Positions 44,756 through 55,903 are shown, numbered from the stretch's first letter. The stretch is 64,000 nucleotides of DNA from Escherichia coli (GCF_030384885.1 NZ_CP128613.1), one strand, 5' to 3'. The notes: generated by a model not told the origin, from the sequence alone. A program made the numbers and translations.

Positions 44756-46954
44756 TTACTTCCTGCGCAACAATCTTAACGCATTCGCTGTCACCAGCAC
44801 CGTCGCACCCGTATCTGCCAGCACCGCCAGCCATAGTCCGGTCATCCCTAACAGCGTTGTGACGAGGAAGATCCCTTTCAGCCCCAGCGCAATGGTGATG
44901 TTCTGGCGGATATTGGCGTGAGTGGCGCGTGCCAGTTCAATCATCTGCACCAGGCCGCGCAGGTGGTTATGGGTTAATGCAGCGTCGGCGGTTTCCAGCG
45001 CCACATCTGTGCCACTGCCCATTGCAATCCCTATGGCGGCAGCTTTCATGGCGGGCGCGTCGTTAATACCGTCACCGACCATCGCCAGAGGCGCATGTTG
45101 ATTCAGCTCGGTCACCGCTTTGACTTTATCTTCTGGTAATAGGCCCGCTTTAAATTTCAGCCCCAGTTCACCGGCGATTGCCGCCGCTGCGTGTGGATTA
45201 TCGCCAGTGAGGATCACTCCTTTGACGCCCAGGGCGCTCAGTTCGCTGATGGCAGTTGCGGCGTCGGCGCGCAGGGTATCCTGCAATGCAATGACACCCA
45301 GCACTTCATCGTTACGCACCACCAGTACTACCGTTTGCCCGGCGCTTTCCAGTTCGTTAATTAAACCAGCAAATGCAACAGCCGGATGTTTTCCGGCAGC
45401 GCATATCAACACGCGCTCACCGTTAATCAGTGCTTCAATACCAGACCCGACCAGCGCCCGCTGTGATTCGGCGGCGGGAATGGCGAGTTCAGCAACCTGT
45501 GCTTCGCGTACGATGGCTTGCGCCAGTGGATGCGTCGCGCCTTGCTCGACCGCCGCTGCCAGTGTCAGCAGTTCAGATTCACTAATACCCGTTGCCGGAT
45601 GAATCGCGGTAACGCGCGGTTTACCGACGGTCAGCGTGCCGGTTTTATCAAACGCCACCTGGGTAACACGACCTAGTTGTTCCAGCGCCGCACCGCCTTT
45701 AATCAACGCCCCATGACGCGCTGCTGCCGCCAGCCCGGAGGTGATCGCCGCAGGTGTTGAGATCACCAGCGCACACGGGCAGCCAATCAGCAGCAGCGTC
45801 AGCCCTTTATAAATCCACTCCTGCCAGCTTGCGGCAAACAGCAGCGGTGGCACCAGCGTCACCAGCAGGGCGACGGCCATAATCGCTGGCGTGTAAATAC
45901 GGCTGAAACGGTCGATAAACCGCTCAATGGGCGCGCGGCGCTCTTCGGCTTCTTCGATCAGTTTCAGAATCCGGTCAATGGCGCTGGCACCCGGTTCTGA
46001 CAGCACTTCCAGCGTTACCAGACGGTCTACGCTGGTGGCGCCTGCAGGAACTTTATCACCCGTCGCGCGCTCCACCGGAATGGATTCGCCGGTCAGGGCG
46101 CTTTCATCAAAACTGGCAAAGGGCGAGAGCAGTTTACCGTCGGCAGGTAAACGCCCACCTGCCGCAACTTCGATAACATCGCCCGGACGCAGGCTGTTAA
46201 TTGCTACCTCTTCACGCTTGCCATTACGCAGGCGCGTGGCGGTTTCCGGTTTCAGCGCCATTAACGCGCTGACCCCTTGACGCGCGCGGCTGGCGGCCCA
46301 GCCTTCCAGTCGTTCACCAATCAAAAACAGCAGCAACACCATCGCAGCTTCAGCCGTTGCGCCAATAAACAGCGCACCAATAGCGGCTACGCTCATTAAG
46401 GTTTCAATAGCGAAGTAGCTGCCGGATTTGATCAGCCGTAATGCCTGACGAGCAATCGGGTACAGCCCAACCAGCGTGGTCGCGATAAACGCCAGTTGAC
46501 CGAACGGATGATTAAACTGCTCCAGACCCCAGCTGATTGCCATCAACACGATTAGCGTAATCAGCGGCAGATTCTCTTTCAGGCGTGATGCTTGCGGTTC
46601 TACGGCTGCCTGTTCATCGCGCAGGGAATAGCCCGCTTTTTGCACCGCAGATTCAACTTGTGCACGGATGTCATTGTCGGCATCAACCACCAGTTTTTCG
46701 GTGGCGAACAGCACCTGCACCTGATTCACGCCTGCAAGCTGGCGCACGGCATTTTCTACCTTGCGCGCGCAGGCGGCGCAGTCCATGCCGCTGACTTTCC
46801 AGCTATAGCGGGTGCCGGAGACGTTTTCAGAGAGCGTTGGCGTGCTGGAACATGCGCCGTCGCAGCAACAGTCGTTGACGTTCTGTACCGTGGTTAGCGG
46901 TTTGAACGCAGAAAATTGAGGGGCTTTCTTGCCGTGATTGTCAGGAGTCGACAT
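44756..46954 (-). CDS. zntA: Zn(II)/Cd(II)/Pb(II)-translocating P-type ATPase
   Basis: 732 aa; GMDCAAC metal-binding motif, CPC in a TM helix, DKTGTLT phosphorylation site, GDGINDAP. Confidence 0.95.
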   Translation of the reverse strand: MSTPDNHGKKAPQFSAFKPLTTVQNVNDCCCDGACSSTPTLSENVSGTRYSWKVSGMDCAACARKVENAVRQLAGVNQVQVLFATEKLVVDADNDIRAQVESAVQKAGYSLRDEQAAVEPQASRLKENLPLITLIVLMAISWGLEQFNHPFGQLAFIATTLVGLYPIARQALRLIKSGSYFAIETLMSVAAIGALFIGATAEAAMVLLLFLIGERLEGWAASRARQGVSALMALKPETATRLRNGKREEVAINSLRPGDVIEVAAGGRLPADGKLLSPFASFDESALTGESIPVERATGDKVPAGATSVDRLVTLEVLSEPGASAIDRILKLIEEAEERRAPIERFIDRFSRIYTPAIMAVALLVTLVPPLLFAASWQEWIYKGLTLLLIGCPCALVISTPAAITSGLAAAARHGALIKGGAALEQLGRVTQVAFDKTGTLTVGKPRVTAIHPATGISESELLTLAAAVEQGATHPLAQAIVREAQVAELAIPAAESQRALVGSGIEALINGERVLICAAGKHPAVAFAGLINELESAGQTVVLVVRNDEVLGVIALQDTLRADAATAISELSALGVKGVILTGDNPHAAAAIAGELGLKFKAGLLPEDKVKAVTELNQHAPLAMVGDGINDAPAMKAAAIGIAMGSGTDVALETADAALTHNHLRGLVQMIELARATHANIRQNITIALGLKGIFLVTTLLGMTGLWLAVLADTGATVLVTANALRLLRRK

Positions 46955-46996
46955 GGCATCCTCCGGTTAAGTTTTTTCTCATTAACCGAAGGATAC

Positions 46997-47022
46997 ACTC
47001 TGGAGTCGACTCCAGAGTCAAG
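46997..47022 (-). promoter_or_regulatory. zntA promoter with ZntR (MerR-family) operator
   Basis: Perfect 22-bp palindrome ACTCTGGAGTCGACTCCAGAGT lying between TTGACT (-35) and TATCCT (-10) with a 20-bp spacer on the minus strand. Confidence 0.8.
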
Positions 47023-47027
47023 TTTTA

Positions 47028-47654
47028 TCAGAGATACAGCGAGCGGACGATGAGGAAATGTCCGGCAAAGTAGCAGGCCGCAGCAATCGCGTTGTCCGCA
47101 CGGAAGCGTCGGCGATAGTGACTACCCAGCCAGACAAAGTTACTTATAAACAGCAACGAAGCGCCGACAAACGCAGAGAGCGCCGGAGCGGTCGGACGGA
47201 AGAACCACAGTTCACCTGCCAGCCACACCATCACCAGCGTCATGCCGATAAACGTGCAGATAGGCCAACGATACTCTTCCAGACGCGTCCAGATAATCGC
47301 CAGTAACAGCGCACCCAGCACCAGCAACACCAGCGGCAAAGGCCAGAAGAAAGAGAGCGTCATCTGGCTGGCGAAATAGATGGTGTACAACAGGTGCGAG
47401 AGGAAAAACGCGCCGATGGCGTACATCAGACGTTGACGTGGCAACAGGGTTAGCGCATCGCCCAGCAGTGAGGCGCACAGTCCCGCCAGCACCAGATAGC
47501 TAATGGCGTCGAACATCGGCGCTTGCCAGGCCAGCAACAGCAGGAGAAGAAGGGTTAATGGTTTAAATACCCAGCGTTGCCAGGTTGGCCCACGATACGA
47601 TGCATCCACAGATAGCCATGCGGAAAGACAGACAGCGATAAACGACCAAAGCAT
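47028..47654 (-). CDS. yhhN: YhhN-family integral membrane protein
   Basis: 208-aa polytopic ORF at the K-12 yhhN position. Confidence 0.8.
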
Positions 47655-47794
47655 CTTAGTTCCTTGAATTCGTTATTTTTTCGTAAGCGGAATGCCTACG
47701 GTCTTGCTTCCAGTTTAGTGGCGAGGGTGGACGGATGACAACACCATAACTGGCAGGGTATGCTTATTTCCGCATTTTCCGATGAGGGATAAAG

Positions 47795-48154
47795 ATGAGC
47801 AAACCACCTCTTTTCTTTATTGTTATCATTGGCTTAATTATCGTCGCCGCATCGTTTCGTTTTATGCAACAGCGACGGGAAAAAGCTGATAATGATATAG
47901 CGCCACTCCAGCAAAAGTTGGTGGTGGTGAGCAATAAGCGGGAAAAACCGATTAACGATCGCCGTTCGCGCCAGCAGGAAGTGACACCGGCTGGTACCAG
48001 CATGCGCTATGAGGCGAGCTTCAAACCGCAAAGCGGAGGAATGGAACAGACGTTTCGCCTCGACGCCCAGCAGTACCATGCCCTGACAGTGGGCGATAAA
48101 GGTACGCTGAGCTATAAAGGAACGCGCTTTGTCAGCTTTGTCAGCAAACAATAA
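47795..48154 (+). CDS. yhhM: small protein with N-terminal TM anchor
   Basis: 119-aa ORF at the K-12 yhhM position. Confidence 0.75.
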   Translation: MSKPPLFFIVIIGLIIVAASFRFMQQRREKADNDIAPLQQKLVVVSNKREKPINDRRSRQQEVTPAGTSMRYEASFKPQSGGMEQTFRLDAQQYHALTVGDKGTLSYKGTRFVSFVSKQ

Positions 48155-48156
48155 GG

Positions 48157-48426
48157 TTATTTTTTAACGTTAAATTTCTTCTGCCAGACCAGCAATTCAA
48201 ACACGCCGAAAAGGAAAATCCGCACCTTTTCGGCGGTGGTCATCTGCGGGCCATCTTTCGGCAAAGTGGATTTCAATAGCGCCAGCTGCATACCATGCAT
48301 CAGCACGGTAAAAATCAGCGCCACGTTAACGAAAATATTCAGCGGACGCGGGAAGGGATGCACCAGGTTGAGGATTAAAAATCCCCAAACGCAGAGCATT
48401 AACAAACGTCCAATATTAATCAACAT
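48157..48426 (-). CDS. yhhL: small inner membrane protein (DUF1145)
   Basis: ATG at 48426 gives 89 aa (MLINIGRLLMLCVWGFLILN...), overlapping the rsmD 3' end. Confidence 0.7.
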   Translation of the reverse strand: MLINIGRLLMLCVWGFLILNLVHPFPRPLNIFVNVALIFTVLMHGMQLALLKSTLPKDGPQMTTAEKVRIFLFGVFELLVWQKKFNVKK

Positions 48427-49012
48427 CACTTTCTCCTTGTGCTTCGCGTTGATACAGGCGGTAAGCCACCTGACCTGCCACTTTTTCCCGATGTAATGAC
48501 CAGTTCGCCGGAACAGTGGGCAGACCGTTTTCGACTTCGCTTTCGACATAAATCAGGGCTTCGTCAGCCAGCCAGCCGTTATCTTCCAGTAAATTTATCG
48601 TCTCTTCTAACAAGCCACGGCGGAACGGTGGATCGACAAACACGATATTATGCGGTGTGCCTTTTTGCGCCAGGAATGACATCGCGTTGCTGTTCACCAC
48701 GCGTGCATTGCCTGCTTTTAGTGTCGCCAGATTCTTAATTAACTGTTGAGAAACCGCGCGATCCATCTCAATCAACGTGGCCCCCGCAGCGTAGCGCGAT
48801 AACGCTTCCAGCCCCAGCGCGCCGCTCCCGGCGAAGCAATCCAGACATTGGGCGTCAACAATGACCGGAGCCAGCCAGTTAAACAACGTTTCGCGTACGC
48901 GGTCGGTGGTGGGGCGCAGGCCTGGGCTATCAGGAACCGGGAGTTTACGGCCTCGCCACTGCCCGCCAATAATGCGGATTTGGCCGCTGCCGGAATGATT
49001 CGGTTTTTTCAT
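48416..49012 (-). CDS. rsmD: 16S rRNA m2G966 methyltransferase RsmD
   Basis: 198 aa; SAM-binding DCFAGSGALGLEA and DPPF motifs. Confidence 0.85.
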   Translation of the reverse strand: MKKPNHSGSGQIRIIGGQWRGRKLPVPDSPGLRPTTDRVRETLFNWLAPVIVDAQCLDCFAGSGALGLEALSRYAAGATLIEMDRAVSQQLIKNLATLKAGNARVVNSNAMSFLAQKGTPHNIVFVDPPFRRGLLEETINLLEDNGWLADEALIYVESEVENGLPTVPANWSLHREKVAGQVAYRLYQREAQGESDVD

Positions 49013-49161
49013 GATAAATTGCTCAATCCGCCAGATAACACATACTTGCAGGCGGTGATGTGAATTAAGTTAAGTGATAGACTATTTCATCATTTTTTTA
49101 GCTGCTATGTACATAGCGTTAACGCTGTGCCATGAAGCAACAGCGAGGAGTGTAGTCGCAA

Positions 49162-50700
49162 ATGGCGAAAGAAAAAAAACGTGGCTTTTTTTCCTGGCTG
49201 GGCTTTGGTCAAAAAGAGCAGACCCCGGAAAAAGAGACAGAAGTCCAGAACGAACAACCGGTTGTAGAAGAAATCGTTCCGGCGCAAGAGCCTGCGAAGG
49301 CTTCTGAACAAGCCGTTGAAGAGCAGCCGCAGGCGTATACTGATGCCGAGGCGGAAACTTTTGCTGCCGAAGTTGTGGAAGTCACTGAACAGGTTGCTGA
49401 AAGTGAAAAAGCGCAGCCTGAAGCTGTTGCTGAACCGGAAGTTATTACTGAGCCGGAAACGATAGTTGAAGAAACGCCAGCGTCAGTCATTGAACCTGAA
49501 GTTACGCCAGAGCCTGTGGCTATCGAGCGTGAAGAGCTGCCGTTGCCGGAAGACGTCAAAGCCGAAGAGGTTTCGCCAGAAGAGTGGCAGGCCGAAGCGG
49601 AAACCGTAGAGATTGTCGAAGCGGCGGAAGAAGAAGCGGCTAAAGACGAAATCACCGACGAAGAGCTGGAAGCACAGGCGCTGGCTGCCGAAGCGGCAGA
49701 AGAGGCGATGATGGTGGTTCCTCCGGCAGAAGAAGAGCAGCCGGTGGAAGAAATCGCTCAGGAGCAGGAAAAACCGACCAAAGAAGGTTTCTTCGCGCGC
49801 CTGAAACGCAGCCTGTTAAAAACCAAAGAAAACCTCGGTTCCGGATTTATCAGCCTGTTCCGCGGTAAAAAAATCGACGATGATCTGTTTGAAGAATTGG
49901 AAGAGCAATTGCTCATCGCCGATGTGGGCGTGGAAACCACGCGTAAAATTATCACCAATCTGACAGAAGGTGCGACCCGCAAGCAGCTACGTGATGCCGA
50001 GGCGCTCTATGGCCTGCTGAAAGAAGAGATGGGCGAGATTCTGGCGAAAGTCGATGAACCGCTGAACGTTGAAGGTAAAACGCCGTTCGTGATCCTGATG
50101 GTGGGCGTCAACGGTGTGGGTAAAACCACGACGATTGGTAAGCTGGCGCGTCAGTTTGAGCAGCAGGGTAAATCAGTGATGCTGGCGGCGGGCGATACTT
50201 TCCGTGCAGCAGCGGTTGAACAGCTTCAGGTCTGGGGTCAGCGTAATAATATTCCGGTGATTGCCCAGCATACCGGTGCGGATTCCGCTTCTGTTATCTT
50301 CGACGCCATTCAGGCCGCTAAAGCGCGTAACATCGACGTTTTGATTGCCGATACCGCCGGACGCCTGCAGAACAAATCGCACTTGATGGAAGAGTTGAAG
50401 AAAATCGTCCGCGTGATGAAGAAACTCGACGTTGAAGCTCCGCATGAAGTTATGCTGACTATCGACGCCAGTACCGGGCAGAATGCAGTAAGCCAGGCCA
50501 AACTGTTCCACGAAGCCGTTGGCTTAACCGGCATCACGCTAACGAAACTGGACGGCACGGCGAAAGGCGGGGTAATTTTCTCGGTGGCTGACCAGTTTGG
50601 TATCCCTATCCGCTACATTGGTGTCGGCGAACGTATTGAGGATTTGCGTCCGTTTAAAGCGGACGACTTTATAGAGGCACTTTTTGCCCGAGAGGATTAA
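49162..50700 (+). CDS. ftsY: signal recognition particle receptor FtsY
   Basis: 512 aa; acidic Glu/Ala-rich A domain then NG domain with GVNGVGKTTT. Confidence 0.95.
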   Translation: MAKEKKRGFFSWLGFGQKEQTPEKETEVQNEQPVVEEIVPAQEPAKASEQAVEEQPQAYTDAEAETFAAEVVEVTEQVAESEKAQPEAVAEPEVITEPETIVEETPASVIEPEVTPEPVAIEREELPLPEDVKAEEVSPEEWQAEAETVEIVEAAEEEAAKDEITDEELEAQALAAEAAEEAMMVVPPAEEEQPVEEIAQEQEKPTKEGFFARLKRSLLKTKENLGSGFISLFRGKKIDDDLFEELEEQLLIADVGVETTRKIITNLTEGATRKQLRDAEALYGLLKEEMGEILAKVDEPLNVEGKTPFVILMVGVNGVGKTTTIGKLARQFEQQGKSVMLAAGDTFRAAAVEQLQVWGQRNNIPVIAQHTGADSASVIFDAIQAAKARNIDVLIADTAGRLQNKSHLMEELKKIVRVMKKLDVEAPHEVMLTIDASTGQNAVSQAKLFHEAVGLTGITLTKLDGTAKGGVIFSVADQFGIPIRYIGVGERIEDLRPFKADDFIEALFARED

Positions 50701-50702
50701 CA

Positions 50703-51371
50703 ATGATTCGCTTTGAACATGTCAGCAAGGCTTATCTCGGTGGGAGACAGGCGCTGCAGGGCGTTACGTTCCATATGCAGCCGGGTGAGATGGCGTTTCT
50801 GACCGGTCATTCCGGCGCAGGGAAAAGTACCCTCCTGAAGCTGATCTGTGGGATTGAGCGGCCCAGCGCCGGGAAAATCTGGTTTAGCGGCCATGACATC
50901 ACGCGTCTGAAAAACCGTGAAGTTCCGTTTCTGCGCCGCCAGATTGGCATGATTTTCCAGGATCACCATCTACTGATGGACCGTACTGTCTACGATAACG
51001 TGGCGATACCCCTGATTATCGCCGGTGCCAGCGGTGACGATATTCGTCGTCGTGTATCGGCGGCGCTGGATAAAGTCGGGCTACTGGACAAAGCGAAGAA
51101 CTTCCCTATTCAGCTTTCCGGCGGTGAACAACAGCGTGTTGGCATTGCCCGCGCGGTGGTGAACAAGCCCGCGGTACTGCTGGCGGATGAACCGACCGGT
51201 AACCTTGACGACGCGTTGTCAGAAGGAATTCTACGTCTGTTTGAAGAATTTAACCGCGTTGGGGTAACCGTATTGATGGCAACGCACGACATCAACCTGA
51301 TTTCGCGGCGTTCCTATCGCATGCTCACCCTGAGCGATGGTCACTTGCATGGAGGCGTGGGCCATGAATAA
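50703..51371 (+). CDS. ftsE: cell-division ABC ATPase FtsE
   Basis: 222 aa; Walker [18 protein letters not shown] signature. Confidence 0.95.
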
Positions 51372-52422
51372 GCGCGATGCAATCAATCATATCCGGCAGT
51401 TTGGCGGGCGTCTGGATCGCTTCCGTAAATCGGTCGGCGGCTCTGGCGACGGCGGTCGTAACGCGCCAAAACGGGCGAAATCCTCGCCAAAACCGGTAAA
51501 TCGCAAAACCAACGTTTTCAACGAACAGGTGCGCTATGCCTTCCACGGCGCATTGCAGGATCTGAAAAGTAAACCGTTCGCCACGTTTTTAACGGTGATG
51601 GTTATCGCCATCTCCCTGACGCTGCCCAGCGTCTGTTATATGGTGTACAAAAACGTTAACCAGGCGGCGACGCAGTATTATCCGTCACCGCAAATCACCG
51701 TTTATCTGCAAAAAACGCTGGACGATGACGCCGCTGCGGGCGTGGTGGCACAGTTGCAGGCCGAGCAAGGTGTAGAGAAAGTGAATTATCTTTCTCGTGA
51801 AGACGCACTGGGCGAGTTCCGTAACTGGTCTGGTTTTGGTGGTGCGCTGGATATGCTGGAAGAAAACCCGCTTCCGGCAGTGGCGGTGGTGATCCCGAAA
51901 CTCGATTTTCAGGGGACCGAGTCACTGAATACCTTGCGCGATCGTATCACCCAGATCAACGGCATTGACGAAGTGCGAATGGATGACAGCTGGTTTGCCC
52001 GTCTGGCGGCGTTGACCGGGCTGGTCGGGCGCGTTTCGGCAATGATCGGCGTATTGATGGTGGCGGCAGTGTTCCTCGTCATCGGTAACAGTGTGCGTCT
52101 GAGCATCTTTGCTCGCCGTGACTCCATTAACGTACAGAAACTGATTGGTGCGACAGATGGTTTCATCCTGCGCCCATTCCTGTACGGTGGCGCATTGCTG
52201 GGATTTTCTGGCGCATTGCTGTCATTAATTTTGTCGGAAATTCTGGTCCTGCGTTTGTCTTCGGCGGTTGCGGAAGTGGCACAGGTTTTCGGAACGAAGT
52301 TTGATATCAATGGCTTATCTTTCGATGAATGTCTGCTTTTGCTGCTGGTGTGTTCGATGATTGGCTGGGTGGCAGCCTGGCTTGCCACGGTACAACATTT
52401 ACGCCACTTTACGCCTGAATAA
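51364..52422 (+). CDS. ftsX: cell-division ABC permease-like protein FtsX
   Basis: ATG at 51364 (MNKRDAINH) gives 352 aa, overlapping ftsE by 8 nt. Confidence 0.9.
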
Positions 52423-52546
52423 TAAAAGCGTGTTATACTCTTTCCCTGCAATGGGTTCCGTAGCAGGGAAAGAGACCCCGTTGTCTCTTCCCGGTATTTC
52501 ATCTCTATGTCACATTTTGTGCGTAATTTATTCACAGCGTTGCATT

Positions 52547-52573
52547 GAACTTGTGGATAAAATCACGGTCTGA
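52547..52573 (+). promoter_or_regulatory. sigma-E-type promoter upstream of rpoH (P3-like)
   Basis: GAACTT, 16-bp spacer, TCTGA fits the sigma-E -35/-10 consensus about 95 bp upstream of rpoH. Confidence 0.55.
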
Positions 52574-52666
52574 TAAAACAGTGAATGATAACCTCGTTGC
52601 TCTTAAGCTCTGGCACAGTTGTTGCTACCACTGAAGCGCCAGAAGATATCGATTGAGAGGATTTGA

Positions 52667-53521
52667 ATGACTGACAAAATGCAAAGTTTAGCTTTAGCCC
52701 CAGTTGGCAACCTGGATTCCTACATCCGGGCAGCTAACGCGTGGCCGATGTTGTCGGCTGACGAGGAGCGGGCGCTGGCTGAAAAGCTGCATTACCATGG
52801 CGATCTGGAAGCAGCAAAAACGCTGATCCTGTCTCACCTGCGGTTTGTTGTTCATATTGCTCGTAATTATGCGGGCTATGGCCTGCCACAGGCGGATTTG
52901 ATTCAGGAAGGTAACATCGGCCTGATGAAAGCAGTGCGCCGTTTTAACCCGGAAGTGGGTGTGCGCCTGGTCTCCTTCGCCGTTCACTGGATCAAAGCAG
53001 AGATCCACGAATACGTTCTGCGCAACTGGCGTATCGTCAAAGTTGCGACCACCAAAGCGCAGCGCAAACTGTTCTTCAACCTGCGTAAAACCAAGCAGCG
53101 TCTGGGCTGGTTTAATCAGGATGAAGTCGAAATGGTGGCCCGTGAACTGGGCGTAACCAGCAAAGACGTACGTGAGATGGAATCGCGTATGGCGGCACAG
53201 GACATGACCTTTGACCTGTCTTCCGATGACGATTCCGACAGCCAGCCGATGGCTCCGGTGCTTTATCTGCAGGATAAATCGTCCAACTTTGCCGACGGCA
53301 TTGAAGATGATAACTGGGAAGAGCAGGCGGCAAACCGTCTGACCGACGCGATGCAGGGCCTGGATGAGCGTAGCCAGGACATTATCCGCGCACGCTGGTT
53401 GGACGAAGACAACAAGTCCACGTTGCAGGAACTGGCTGACCGTTACGGTGTTTCCGCTGAGCGTGTGCGCCAGCTGGAAAAGAACGCGATGAAAAAACTT
53501 CGCGCTGCTATTGAAGCGTAA
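52667..53521 (+). CDS. rpoH: RNA polymerase sigma-32 (heat-shock sigma factor)
   Basis: 284-aa ORF matching RpoH. Confidence 0.95.
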
Positions 53522-53541
53522 TTTCCACTATTAATCAGAGA

Positions 53542-53576
53542 ACCCTGGATGAGAGTCCGGGGTTTTTGTTTTTTGG
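53542..53576 (+). terminator. rho-independent terminator of rpoH
   Basis: ACCCTGGA-tgagag-TCCGGGGT hairpin followed by TTTTTGTTTTTT. Confidence 0.8.
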
Positions 53577-53792
53577 ACCTCTGCAATAATCAATTACCCC
53601 CTCCGACAAAACGCCAATCCCCACGCAGATTGTTAATAAACTGTCAAAATAGCTATTCCAATATCATAAAAATCGGGTATGTTTTAGCAGAGTATGCTGC
53701 TAAAGCACGGGTAGTCATGCATAAAACGAAATAAAGTGCTGAACAACAACATCACAACACACGTAATAACCAGATGAATGGGGATTCTCAGG

Positions 53793-54896
53793 ATGAATAT
53801 AAAGGGTAAAGCGTTACTGGCAGGATGTATCGCGCTGGCATTCAGCAATATGGCTCTGGCAGAAGATATTAAAGTCGCGGTTGTGGGCGCAATGTCCGGT
53901 CCGGTGGCCCAGTACGGCGACCAGGAGTTTACTGGCGCAGAGCAGGCAGTTGCGGATATTAACGCTAAAGGCGGTATCAAAGGCAACAAACTGCAAATCG
54001 TAAAATATGACGATGCCTGTGACCCGAAACAGGCGGTTGCGGTGGCGAACAAAGTCGTTAACGACGGCATTAAATATGTCATTGGCCACCTCTGTTCTTC
54101 ATCAACGCAGCCAGCGTCTGACATCTACGAAGACGAAGGCATTTTAATGATCACCCCAGCAGCAACCGCACCAGAGCTGACCGCCCGTGGCTATCAGCTG
54201 ATCCTGCGCACCACCGGCCTGGACTCCGACCAGGGACCGACGGCGGCGAAATATATTCTTGAGAAAGTGAAACCGCAGCGTATTGCTATCGTTCATGATA
54301 AACAGCAATACGGCGAAGGTCTGGCGCGTGCGGTGCAGGACGGCCTGAAGAAAGGCAATGCTAACGTGGTGTTCTTTGATGGCATCACCGCCGGGGAAAA
54401 AGATTTCTCAACGCTGGTGGCGCGTCTGAAAAAAGAGAATATCGACTTCGTTTACTACGGCGGTTATCACCCGGAAATGGGGCAGATCCTGCGTCAGGCA
54501 CGCGCGGCAGGGCTGAAAACTCAGTTTATGGGGCCGGAAGGCGTGGCTAACGTCTCGCTGTCTAACATTGCGGGCGAATCAGCGGAAGGGCTGCTGGTAA
54601 CCAAGCCGAAGAACTACGATCAGGTTCCGGCGAACAAACCCATTGTTGACGCGATCAAAGCGAAAAAACAGGACCCAAGCGGCGCGTTCGTCTGGACCAC
54701 CTACGCCGCGCTGCAATCTTTGCAGGCGGGCCTGAATCAGTCTGACGATCCGGCTGAAATCGCCAAATACCTGAAAGCGAACTCCGTGGATACCGTGATG
54801 GGGCCGCTGACCTGGGATGAGAAAGGCGATCTGAAAGGCTTTGAGTTCGGCGTATTTGACTGGCACGCCAACGGCACGGCGACCGATGCGAAGTAA
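53793..54896 (+). CDS. livJ: periplasmic Leu/Ile/Val-binding protein
   Basis: ATG at 53793 gives 367 aa with signal peptide; paralog of the livK product. Confidence 0.9.
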
Positions 54897-54956
54897 TCAT
54901 TAATCGGCAACTTTGGGTTGCCGCCAAATTGCTAATATCGAGTACGCATGCTTCAT

Positions 54957-55055
<99 letters not shown>

Positions 55056-55096
55056 AATTTCTCGTTGGTCATCACTTTTGAAATCAAACTTGACGA

Positions 55097-55480
55097 TTAA
55101 CGCTTCTCCCAGCCGCCCTGTTGTGCCGTAAACCCCAGCGCCTGCATAAACGCCGTCATCACGCCGCGATCTTCCACGCCTGCATCCGCCATCCACCAGC
55201 CTGAAACGCCGGGATTGTTACGCAAAACCTCTTCCAGCAAATATTGCCCCACACCGCGACGTCGGGTGACTTCCCGCACGCGCAGGGAATCCAGTGCCCC
55301 CTCGGTGCCGCTTAAGGTTACGCGCACGGCAGCAAGCAGGCGCTCGTTAAAACGCGCGGCGTAGATGCGGTGGTTATCGTCAACCTGTAAAGAGGAAGAT
55401 GAATACTCCGGCCAGATCTTTTGCAGATCAATCCGGTCCTGGTCGCTAAAGTGTTCTAATCGAATGATGGTCAGCTTCAT
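55097..55480 (-). CDS. panM: GNAT-fold PanD maturation factor PanM
   Basis: 127-aa ORF MKLTIIRLEHFSDQDRIDLQKIWPEY..., convergent with livJ. Confidence 0.85.
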   Translation of the reverse strand: MKLTIIRLEHFSDQDRIDLQKIWPEYSSSSLQVDDNHRIYAARFNERLLAAVRVTLSGTEGALDSLRVREVTRRRGVGQYLLEEVLRNNPGVSGWWMADAGVEDRGVMTAFMQALGFTAQQGGWEKR

Positions 55481-55903
55481 GGGGAACCCGTGTAAATCAC
55501 AAAAGTGGAACCAGTGTAGCGAAATAATTTAATCGGAGGCTTTCTCTTTTTTATTTCTTTTGGCAGGTGATTAATTTTTTAACAGCAATAATTACAAATT
55601 AAAAACATTAGAGAATGAAAAATGTCCAGCATAATCCCCTGAATGGTAGTGAATTATTCCGCCCTTTGTACCGTTATTTTATGCTGACAACGGCGCTTTT
55701 TTCTGTTTATCTATCAATAAATTCAGAATATTATCTGTTCTTAATCGACTGAAAAATAGGGATTTTAATCGCTATTATCACAAAACACTGCGCTAAACCC
55801 TTAATCAGACAGGCAAAAACAGTGCAGTATAAAAAAAGTACAGTCTGATTTGTTAACACATAAAAACAAAGCAACACAACATCACGAATGGGGATTTTTG
55901 ACT

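Follow-up and report, generated by a model that had tools for sequence, protein, structure and literature searches.

The ftsY locus and its source lineage

The window, by which we mean the whole 64,000-nucleotide stretch of Escherichia coli DNA that was analysed (NZ_CP128613.1), carries on its forward strand at 49162-50700 the coding sequence of FtsY, with an intact frame of 512 codons followed by a stop. This assignment draws on the list of open reading frames, on identity to annotated ftsY, on the FtsY equivalog model TIGR00064, which the 512-aa protein matched with 385.9 bits against a cutoff of 260.7 (E = 9.8e-116), and on the presence of both Pfam domains of FtsY, SRP54_N (PF02881) at residues 225-290 and the SRP54 GTPase (PF00448) at residues 308-508. 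The neighbours are arranged as in E. coli, with a divergent rsmD on one side and ftsE-ftsX-rpoH on the other; reading frames for ftsE and ftsX come next in the window, and the order ftsY-ftsE-ftsX is annotated in an identical database record (NZ_CP027579.1). Every attribute of FtsY that could be tested was present. A scan of 48900-50900 with Rfam at gathering thresholds detected no RNA family.

The identical record is that of E. coli 2013C-4282, whose ftsY (protein WP_001040622.1) and both 5-kb flanks match the window with 100% identity. Okuno et al. 2023 (PMC10100065) list this strain as a member of Escherichia cryptic clade I with a complete sequence; the clade is a sister lineage to E. coli sensu stricto. 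FtsY of a second clade I strain, EC42405, is also 512 aa long, and the exact protein of the window occurs on 383 contigs under the name 'MULTISPECIES: signal recognition particle-docking protein FtsY [Escherichia]'. The 512-aa FtsY is an ordinary protein and is already known in RefSeq.

Several features of the surroundings were recorded alongside. Between zntA and panM (44760-55700) the window is 1.86% diverged from E. fergusonii GCA_900450565.1, 1.23% from EC42405 and 3.6% from K-12 and SMS-3-5; for ftsY the divergence is 0.5% from E. fergusonii in the NG domain and 6-8% from E. marmotae, E. ruysiae and E. whittamii. The genome-wide baseline expected for E. fergusonii is about 7%. These values suggest a recombination tract, common to E. 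fergusonii and clade I, around zntA-ftsYEX-rpoH-livJ. On the reverse strand at 48157-48549, yhhL encodes 130 aa from an upstream ATG in our list of reading frames and 89 aa (270 nt) in the identical RefSeq record, where it overlaps rsmD by 11 nt; the two lengths reflect the choice of start codon and no difference in sequence. Finally, the 90%-identity cluster that holds K-12 FtsY also includes 222-aa FtsE proteins, which looks like a clustering artefact, perhaps caused by fused ftsY-ftsE calls, that carries no biological meaning.

Domain layout and length difference from K-12

The A domain (49162-49794, residues 1-211) is acidic, of low complexity and fast-evolving, and ends at the phenylalanine that matches Phe196 of K-12. 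It is of the enterobacterial type, combining a basic N-terminal motif, an acidic centre and a helix at the A/N junction. Residues 1-196 comprise 28% Glu, 16% Ala, 11% Val and 9% Pro and have a net charge of -48; by analogy with NMR data for the K-12 protein (PMC5094494), the acidic centre is probably disordered. The basic lipid-binding motif MAKEKKRGFFSWLG (49162-49203, residues 1-14; PMC5533587) is the same as in K-12, as is the amphipathic membrane-targeting helix FFARLKRSLLKTK at the junction (49789-49827; PMC5533587, PMC5094494), and residues 1-39 match K-12 exactly. The NG domain, a helical bundle and GTPase delimited with Pfam (49795-50697), shares 99.3% protein identity with K-12, from which GTP-dependent interaction with Ffh/SRP and targeting activity would be expected. 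Amino acid identity to other Escherichia is 82-97% in the A domain as against 99-100% in the NG domain.

Two further observations concern the DNA that encodes the A domain. A run of eight adenines at 49172-49179 spans ftsY codons 4-6 (AAA GAA AAA AAA), and a 516-aa E. coli FtsY in the database (P0027) starts with an aberrant stretch, MYIALTLCHEATARSVVANGE, and passes into normal sequence directly after this run, which suggests a frameshift or a mis-called start at the homopolymer. An antisense reading frame of 148 codons at 49209-49655 on the reverse strand, rich in Ser, Ala and Thr and wholly inside the A-domain coding region, was considered as a gene and dismissed, being most likely a by-product of the GAA/GCN-rich sense codons.

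An earlier note on this DNA had given a length of 497 aa for K-12 FtsY and had placed the additional residues of the window protein in its Glu/Ala/Pro-rich A domain; both statements proved correct. The ftsY gene of K-12 ER3413 is 1494 nt long and encodes 497 aa (WP_001040654.1), so that the window protein is longer by 15 residues, and protein and DNA alignments, which are somewhat ambiguous in this low-complexity sequence, assign the difference to three in-frame indels of 4, 10 and 1 aa, all within the acidic A domain. The first segment without a counterpart in K-12-type alleles is VAEP (12 nt, 49426-49437, with a placement that is ambiguous by a few bases) and the second is TPASVIEPEV (30 nt, 49474-49503). 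The third indel falls at the Ala-Gln codons at 49672-49677, where K-12 reads ET-A and the window reads EAQA; the 3 nt are gone, and one Gln lacks a counterpart, only in the 497-aa K-12-type alleles, and the Gln codon is retained in the 498-aa form, which is the length of many E. coli alleles.

Repetitiveness of the A domain

The same note had described the A domain as repetitive and built of EPEV and EPE units. Such motifs do occur, as EPEVITEPE at residues 91-99 and EPEVTPEP at residues 111-118. Tandem Repeats Finder detected no array at 49400-49540 with a minimum score of 30, the region 49100-49900 having been run at the most permissive threshold. Repeated peptide words of three, four and five residues in the acidic core were also in no excess over 2000 composition-preserving shuffles (P = 0.89, 0.43 and 0.34, respectively). 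The sole Tandem Repeats Finder match in the A domain lies at 49618-49650 and consists of 2.2 copies of a 15-nt unit, GAAGCGGCGAAAGAA, with 83% matches and a score of 45. This array, which encodes EAAEEEAAK, is situated away from the indels and has the same length in the window, K-12 and CB8671; MOD1-EC7003 lacks five codons at this site.

A weak self-similarity was detected at an offset of 60 nt, with about 54% DNA identity (P ≤ 0.005 against codon shuffles). It corresponds to two degenerate units of 20 codons, AVAEPEVITEPETIVEETPA and SVIEPEVTPEPVAIEREELP, that occupy 49423-49542 on the forward strand and share 9 of 20 residues; the pair is an ancient and decayed tandem duplication. Long alleles from E. 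marmotae, E. ruysiae, E. whittamii and E1V33 show the 60-nt periodicity as well (P ≤ 0.004); in the allele of SCPM-O-B-8794 it is fainter (51%, P = 0.027), and the same offset test did not find it in short alleles.

An origin of the extra segments as copies of their neighbours was ruled out. The 30-nt segment is identical to each neighbour at only 13 of 30 positions (43%) and is therefore not a recent tandem duplication; for the 12-nt segment the identities are 6 and 4 of 12. Nor does the site behave as a tandem-repeat locus would: near-identical units arranged head to tail are lacking at the variable position, the differences of 12 and 30 nt do not amount to whole copies of the degenerate 60-nt unit, and copy number does not vary among close strains (49 carriers, full-length 126-nt query). 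The description of the domain as repetitive thus holds in a weak sense, through compositional bias and one old 20-codon duplication, and fails where an array at the indels or a surplus of short words is meant.

Length alleles across the genus Escherichia

We surveyed the length of ftsY in a scan of one genome per GTDB species, using the best 80 loci; the representatives of E. coli, E. fergusonii, E. marmotae and E. ruysiae were not among these, and the last three species were recovered through the protein cluster and a contig look-up. In the scan FtsY was 512 aa long in E. whittamii, 504 aa in E. albertii, 486 aa in Escherichia sp. MOD1-EC7003, 509 aa in Escherichia sp. E1V33 and 512 aa in 'E. 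coli' SCPM-O-B-8794, a genome that is filed as representative of a species of its own. FtsY proteins of 512 aa under the names E. marmotae, E. ruysiae and E. fergusonii were also present in the 90%-identity cluster to which the window protein belongs, and their DNA was aligned. In all alleles of 512 or 509 aa the two segments occupy matching positions and are plainly homologous, though diverged, the counterparts of TPASVIEPEV being TPAPVVEPEV in SCPM-O-B-8794, APAPVVEPEV in E. marmotae, TPASVVEPEV in E. ruysiae and SSAPVVEPEV in E. whittamii. The VAEP segment was found in all sampled Escherichia other than E. coli, including E. albertii.

Relative to the window, five of the long-allele lineages outside E. 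coli are 5-8% diverged in the DNA of the NG domain and 8-11% in the A domain, and can therefore be treated as independent witnesses. The ftsY of E. fergusonii, which is only 0.5-1.2% from that of the window, was for this reason not counted as an independent outgroup. Because both segments are present in five independent lineages, the long state very probably existed before E. coli parted from clades I to V, and the 497/498-aa allele is a contraction and the derived form. In E. albertii and MOD1-EC7003 the first segment is present and 8 of the 10 residues are missing from the second. At the very base of the genus the long state is accordingly only a possibility, and a 24-nt gain after the split of E. 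albertii could account for the difference.

Distribution of alleles within E. coli

A search of 5426 complete E. coli genomes located ftsY in 5425. The short junction was present in 5370, the long segment in 49 (at least 97.6% identity to a 126-nt query spanning the indel region) and a 504-aa allele like that of E. albertii in six, these three classes adding up to 5425; the short form is thus nearly fixed in E. coli sensu stricto. Other lengths of FtsY in E. coli are 458 aa (PSJ-07), 495 aa and 504 aa, and the range among 78 complete Enterobacterales ftsY genes, taken from the best 80 loci of the scan, is 456-576 aa. In about 18 complete genomes ftsY is at least 99% identical to that of the window, which suggests that some 18 of the 49 carriers are of the clade I type; the others are similar to SMS-3-5. 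The nearest relatives of the window in the flanks are carriers of the long segment, so that the long allele co-segregates with the flanking haplotype and is a lineage trait.

The region of the indels is itself conserved among carriers. Over 84 nt there are zero differences among the alleles of clade I, SMS-3-5 and LR28, the flanks of which are about 3% apart, and this identical core is found in clade I, in E. fergusonii and in a small part of E. coli sensu stricto. The ftsY backbone of SMS-3-5, which we take to be a phylogroup F strain, is E. coli-like, with 0.8-2.3% NG-domain divergence from short alleles, and its 84-nt region is that of the window. The idea that a 131-nt stretch of identity between the window and SMS-3-5 demonstrates a recent transfer of a small patch was considered and rejected: the 48 differences in 1536 nt lead by a hand estimate to chance gaps of about 140 nt, and comparable gaps exist elsewhere in ftsY.

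The six genomes named E. coli that have the E. albertii-like ftsY are SCU-172 (NZ_CP054353.1), MS 21-1, MSB1_4I, NZ_OZ547117.1, NZ_OZ546925.1 and NZ_OZ546911.1. In SCU-172, the one of the six that was examined, the flanks (600 nt upstream, 294 nt downstream) share 99.7% identity with the type strain of E. albertii and only some 93% with E. coli. The six are either mislabelled strains or cases of large introgression.

Origin of the short allele

The 30-nt indel is bracketed by an imperfect direct repeat, with a left copy GAAGAAACGCCAG at 49468-49480 and a right copy GAAGTTACGCCAG at 49498-49510 on the forward strand, that is identical at 11 of 13 positions and has its copies exactly 30 nt apart. 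Removal of one copy and the spacer from the long allele produces the junction of the short allele, GAAGAAACGCC(G)GAG. The 12-nt indel is flanked by weak microhomology only. Along the branch towards most of E. coli sensu stricto, in-frame deletions of 12 and 30 nt would have taken 14 codons out of the old 20-codon duplication, and one further codon would have been lost later in K-12-type strains. The 30-nt loss may have come about by replication slippage or illegitimate recombination between the copies of GAAG(AA/TT)ACGCCAG, an origin that we infer from the position and spacing of the repeat.

The two classes of allele also differ by substitution. In and around the indels 10 of 42 aligned bases (24%) differ between long and short alleles, as against about 3.5% in the adjoining A-domain DNA; the short allele is therefore not merely the long allele minus 42 nt, and the haplotypes are old and more than one mutational step apart.

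A separate deletion in the A domain was noted in PSJ-07, whose 458-aa FtsY lacks 120 nt in frame (A-domain residues ~140-179, approximately 49577-49704 in the window). In our reading of the alignment, a perfect direct repeat of 8 nt, CAGAAGAG, with copies 120 nt apart, contains its breakpoints, and the allele is a clear case of slippage-type deletion within the A domain.

Functional effect and alternative explanations

In K-12 FtsY the stretch from Ile38 to Ala140 is highly dynamic and disordered by NMR, binds SecYEG through non-specific electrostatic contacts and serves as a tether for the NG domain (PMC5094494). The A domain as a whole has been called 'poorly conserved' (PMC5533587) and 'non-essential' (PMC2780400), and FtsY-NG+1, from which nearly the whole A domain is removed, supports growth, although less efficiently (PMC2064314). 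Truncation experiments indicate that the acidic A domain modulates membrane engagement (PMC5533587). The indels map inside the region that matches Ile38-Ala140; the 14 additional residues bring three more Glu and three more Pro, and both lipid-binding motifs, like all other mapped motifs, are intact. Since a dynamic tether is affected and the motifs and NG core are unchanged, the 14-residue difference is most likely a near-neutral change in tether length. Taken together, we consider it very likely that the window carries an ordinary clade I allele at the ancestral length, and that the K-12-type form was shortened by in-frame deletions in the disordered A domain with little consequence for function.

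The strongest of the other explanations, although an unlikely one, is that E. fergusonii or a related donor supplied the long allele by homologous recombination, in a block of about 10 kb or more. The ftsY of the window is 0.5% (NG domain) and 1.2% (A domain) from that of E. fergusonii, as against 3-4.6% for E. coli sensu stricto and 6-8% for the remaining named species, and over 11 kb E. fergusonii lies 1.86% from the window in a patchy pattern of 0-5.6%. However, clade I strain EC42405 is equally close, at 1.23% from the window and 1.89% from E. fergusonii, the 18 complete genomes with nearly identical ftsY mark the allele as typical of clade I, and transfer may equally have run from clade I to E. 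fergusonii. The direction of any such transfer leaves the ancestral status of the long form unchanged, because the independent outgroups are also long.

Alternatively, the long and short forms may be functionally distinct and under selection, for example if the length or charge of the tether (14 residues with the three additional Glu) tunes scanning of SecYEG or auto-inhibition at the membrane. The clustering of substitutions at the indels, the near fixation of the short form in E. coli sensu stricto and the effect of the acidic A domain on membrane engagement in truncations (PMC5533587) would be in keeping with this, but the region is disordered and its binding to SecYEG non-specific (PMC5094494), NG+1 supports growth (PMC2064314), FtsY length ranges widely across the family and includes a natural 458-aa E. 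coli allele, and high divergence is also the outcome expected of relaxed constraint. We regard a role for selection as quite improbable. A combined account receives the same low weight: an old dimorphism of long and short forms, with 24% of aligned bases differing at the indels and 1.5-3.5% in the rest of the gene, that may move by recombination and that selection on tether length or charge may maintain or sweep.

The earlier note had proposed slippage-type expansion, that is, a recent slipped-strand event in the window strain or its lineage that added 15 residues to a K-12-like 497-aa FtsY. This we consider highly improbable. The biased composition, the two EPEV...EPE motifs and the short direct repeats speak for such an event, but homologous copies of both segments exist in the five independent lineages outside E. 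coli, the 30-nt segment resembles neither neighbour closely and lies in no detectable array, and copy number is constant, with the 84-nt region invariant in clade I, SMS-3-5 and LR28 and the 126-nt query matched closely in all 49 carriers. The 8-11% divergence of the outgroups in the A domain also argues against recent import of one expanded allele. What survives of the proposal is the involvement of short direct repeats and slippage; the polarity is reversed, as the outgroups keep both segments and the K-12-type allele is the derived one. Finally, an assembly or sequencing artefact, for which only the low complexity of the region would speak, can be practically dismissed given at least 97.6% identity over the 126-nt segment in 49 independent complete genomes, the occurrence of the protein on 383 contigs and the intact frame.

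If the preferred reading of an ancestral long form is correct, K-12 FtsY is no reference for ancestral length, and the 497/498-aa protein used in nearly all of the biochemistry of the SRP receptor would be a derived, shortened one. The natural alleles of 458-512 aa in E. coli and its sisters would provide a ready series for testing the length of a disordered tether, and the extra segment is a lineage marker by which most E. coli sensu stricto can be told apart from clade I and from other Escherichia. The significance is small, and the main value lies in this corrective on the use of K-12 as a reference.

Comparison with known systems

FtsY of the window and of K-12 are products of the same gene in the same rsmD / ftsY-ftsE-ftsX / rpoH context and share the A, N and G architecture, the lipid-binding motif and the junction helix; they differ in that three in-frame indels leave the K-12 protein with 15 fewer residues in the centre of the A domain, which is 92% identical at aligned positions. 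The 512-aa FtsY proteins of E. fergusonii, E. marmotae, E. ruysiae and E. whittamii resemble the window protein in length, in having both extra segments in place and in belonging to the same 90% protein cluster, but differ from it by A-domain substitutions (86-97% amino acid identity; at the DNA level E. marmotae, E. ruysiae and E. whittamii are 8-11% diverged). That of E. fergusonii is 97-98% identical over the A-domain query and 100% identical in the NG domain. Among mechanisms of length change, the locus differs from contingency-type simple-sequence loci in that ftsY has no array of near-identical units and its alleles are stable within lineages. It resembles instead the variation in length of disordered linkers by microhomology-associated indels, with in-frame changes of 3-120 nt in an acidic disordered region and direct repeats, matching at 11 of 13 and 8 of 8 positions, at the breakpoints.
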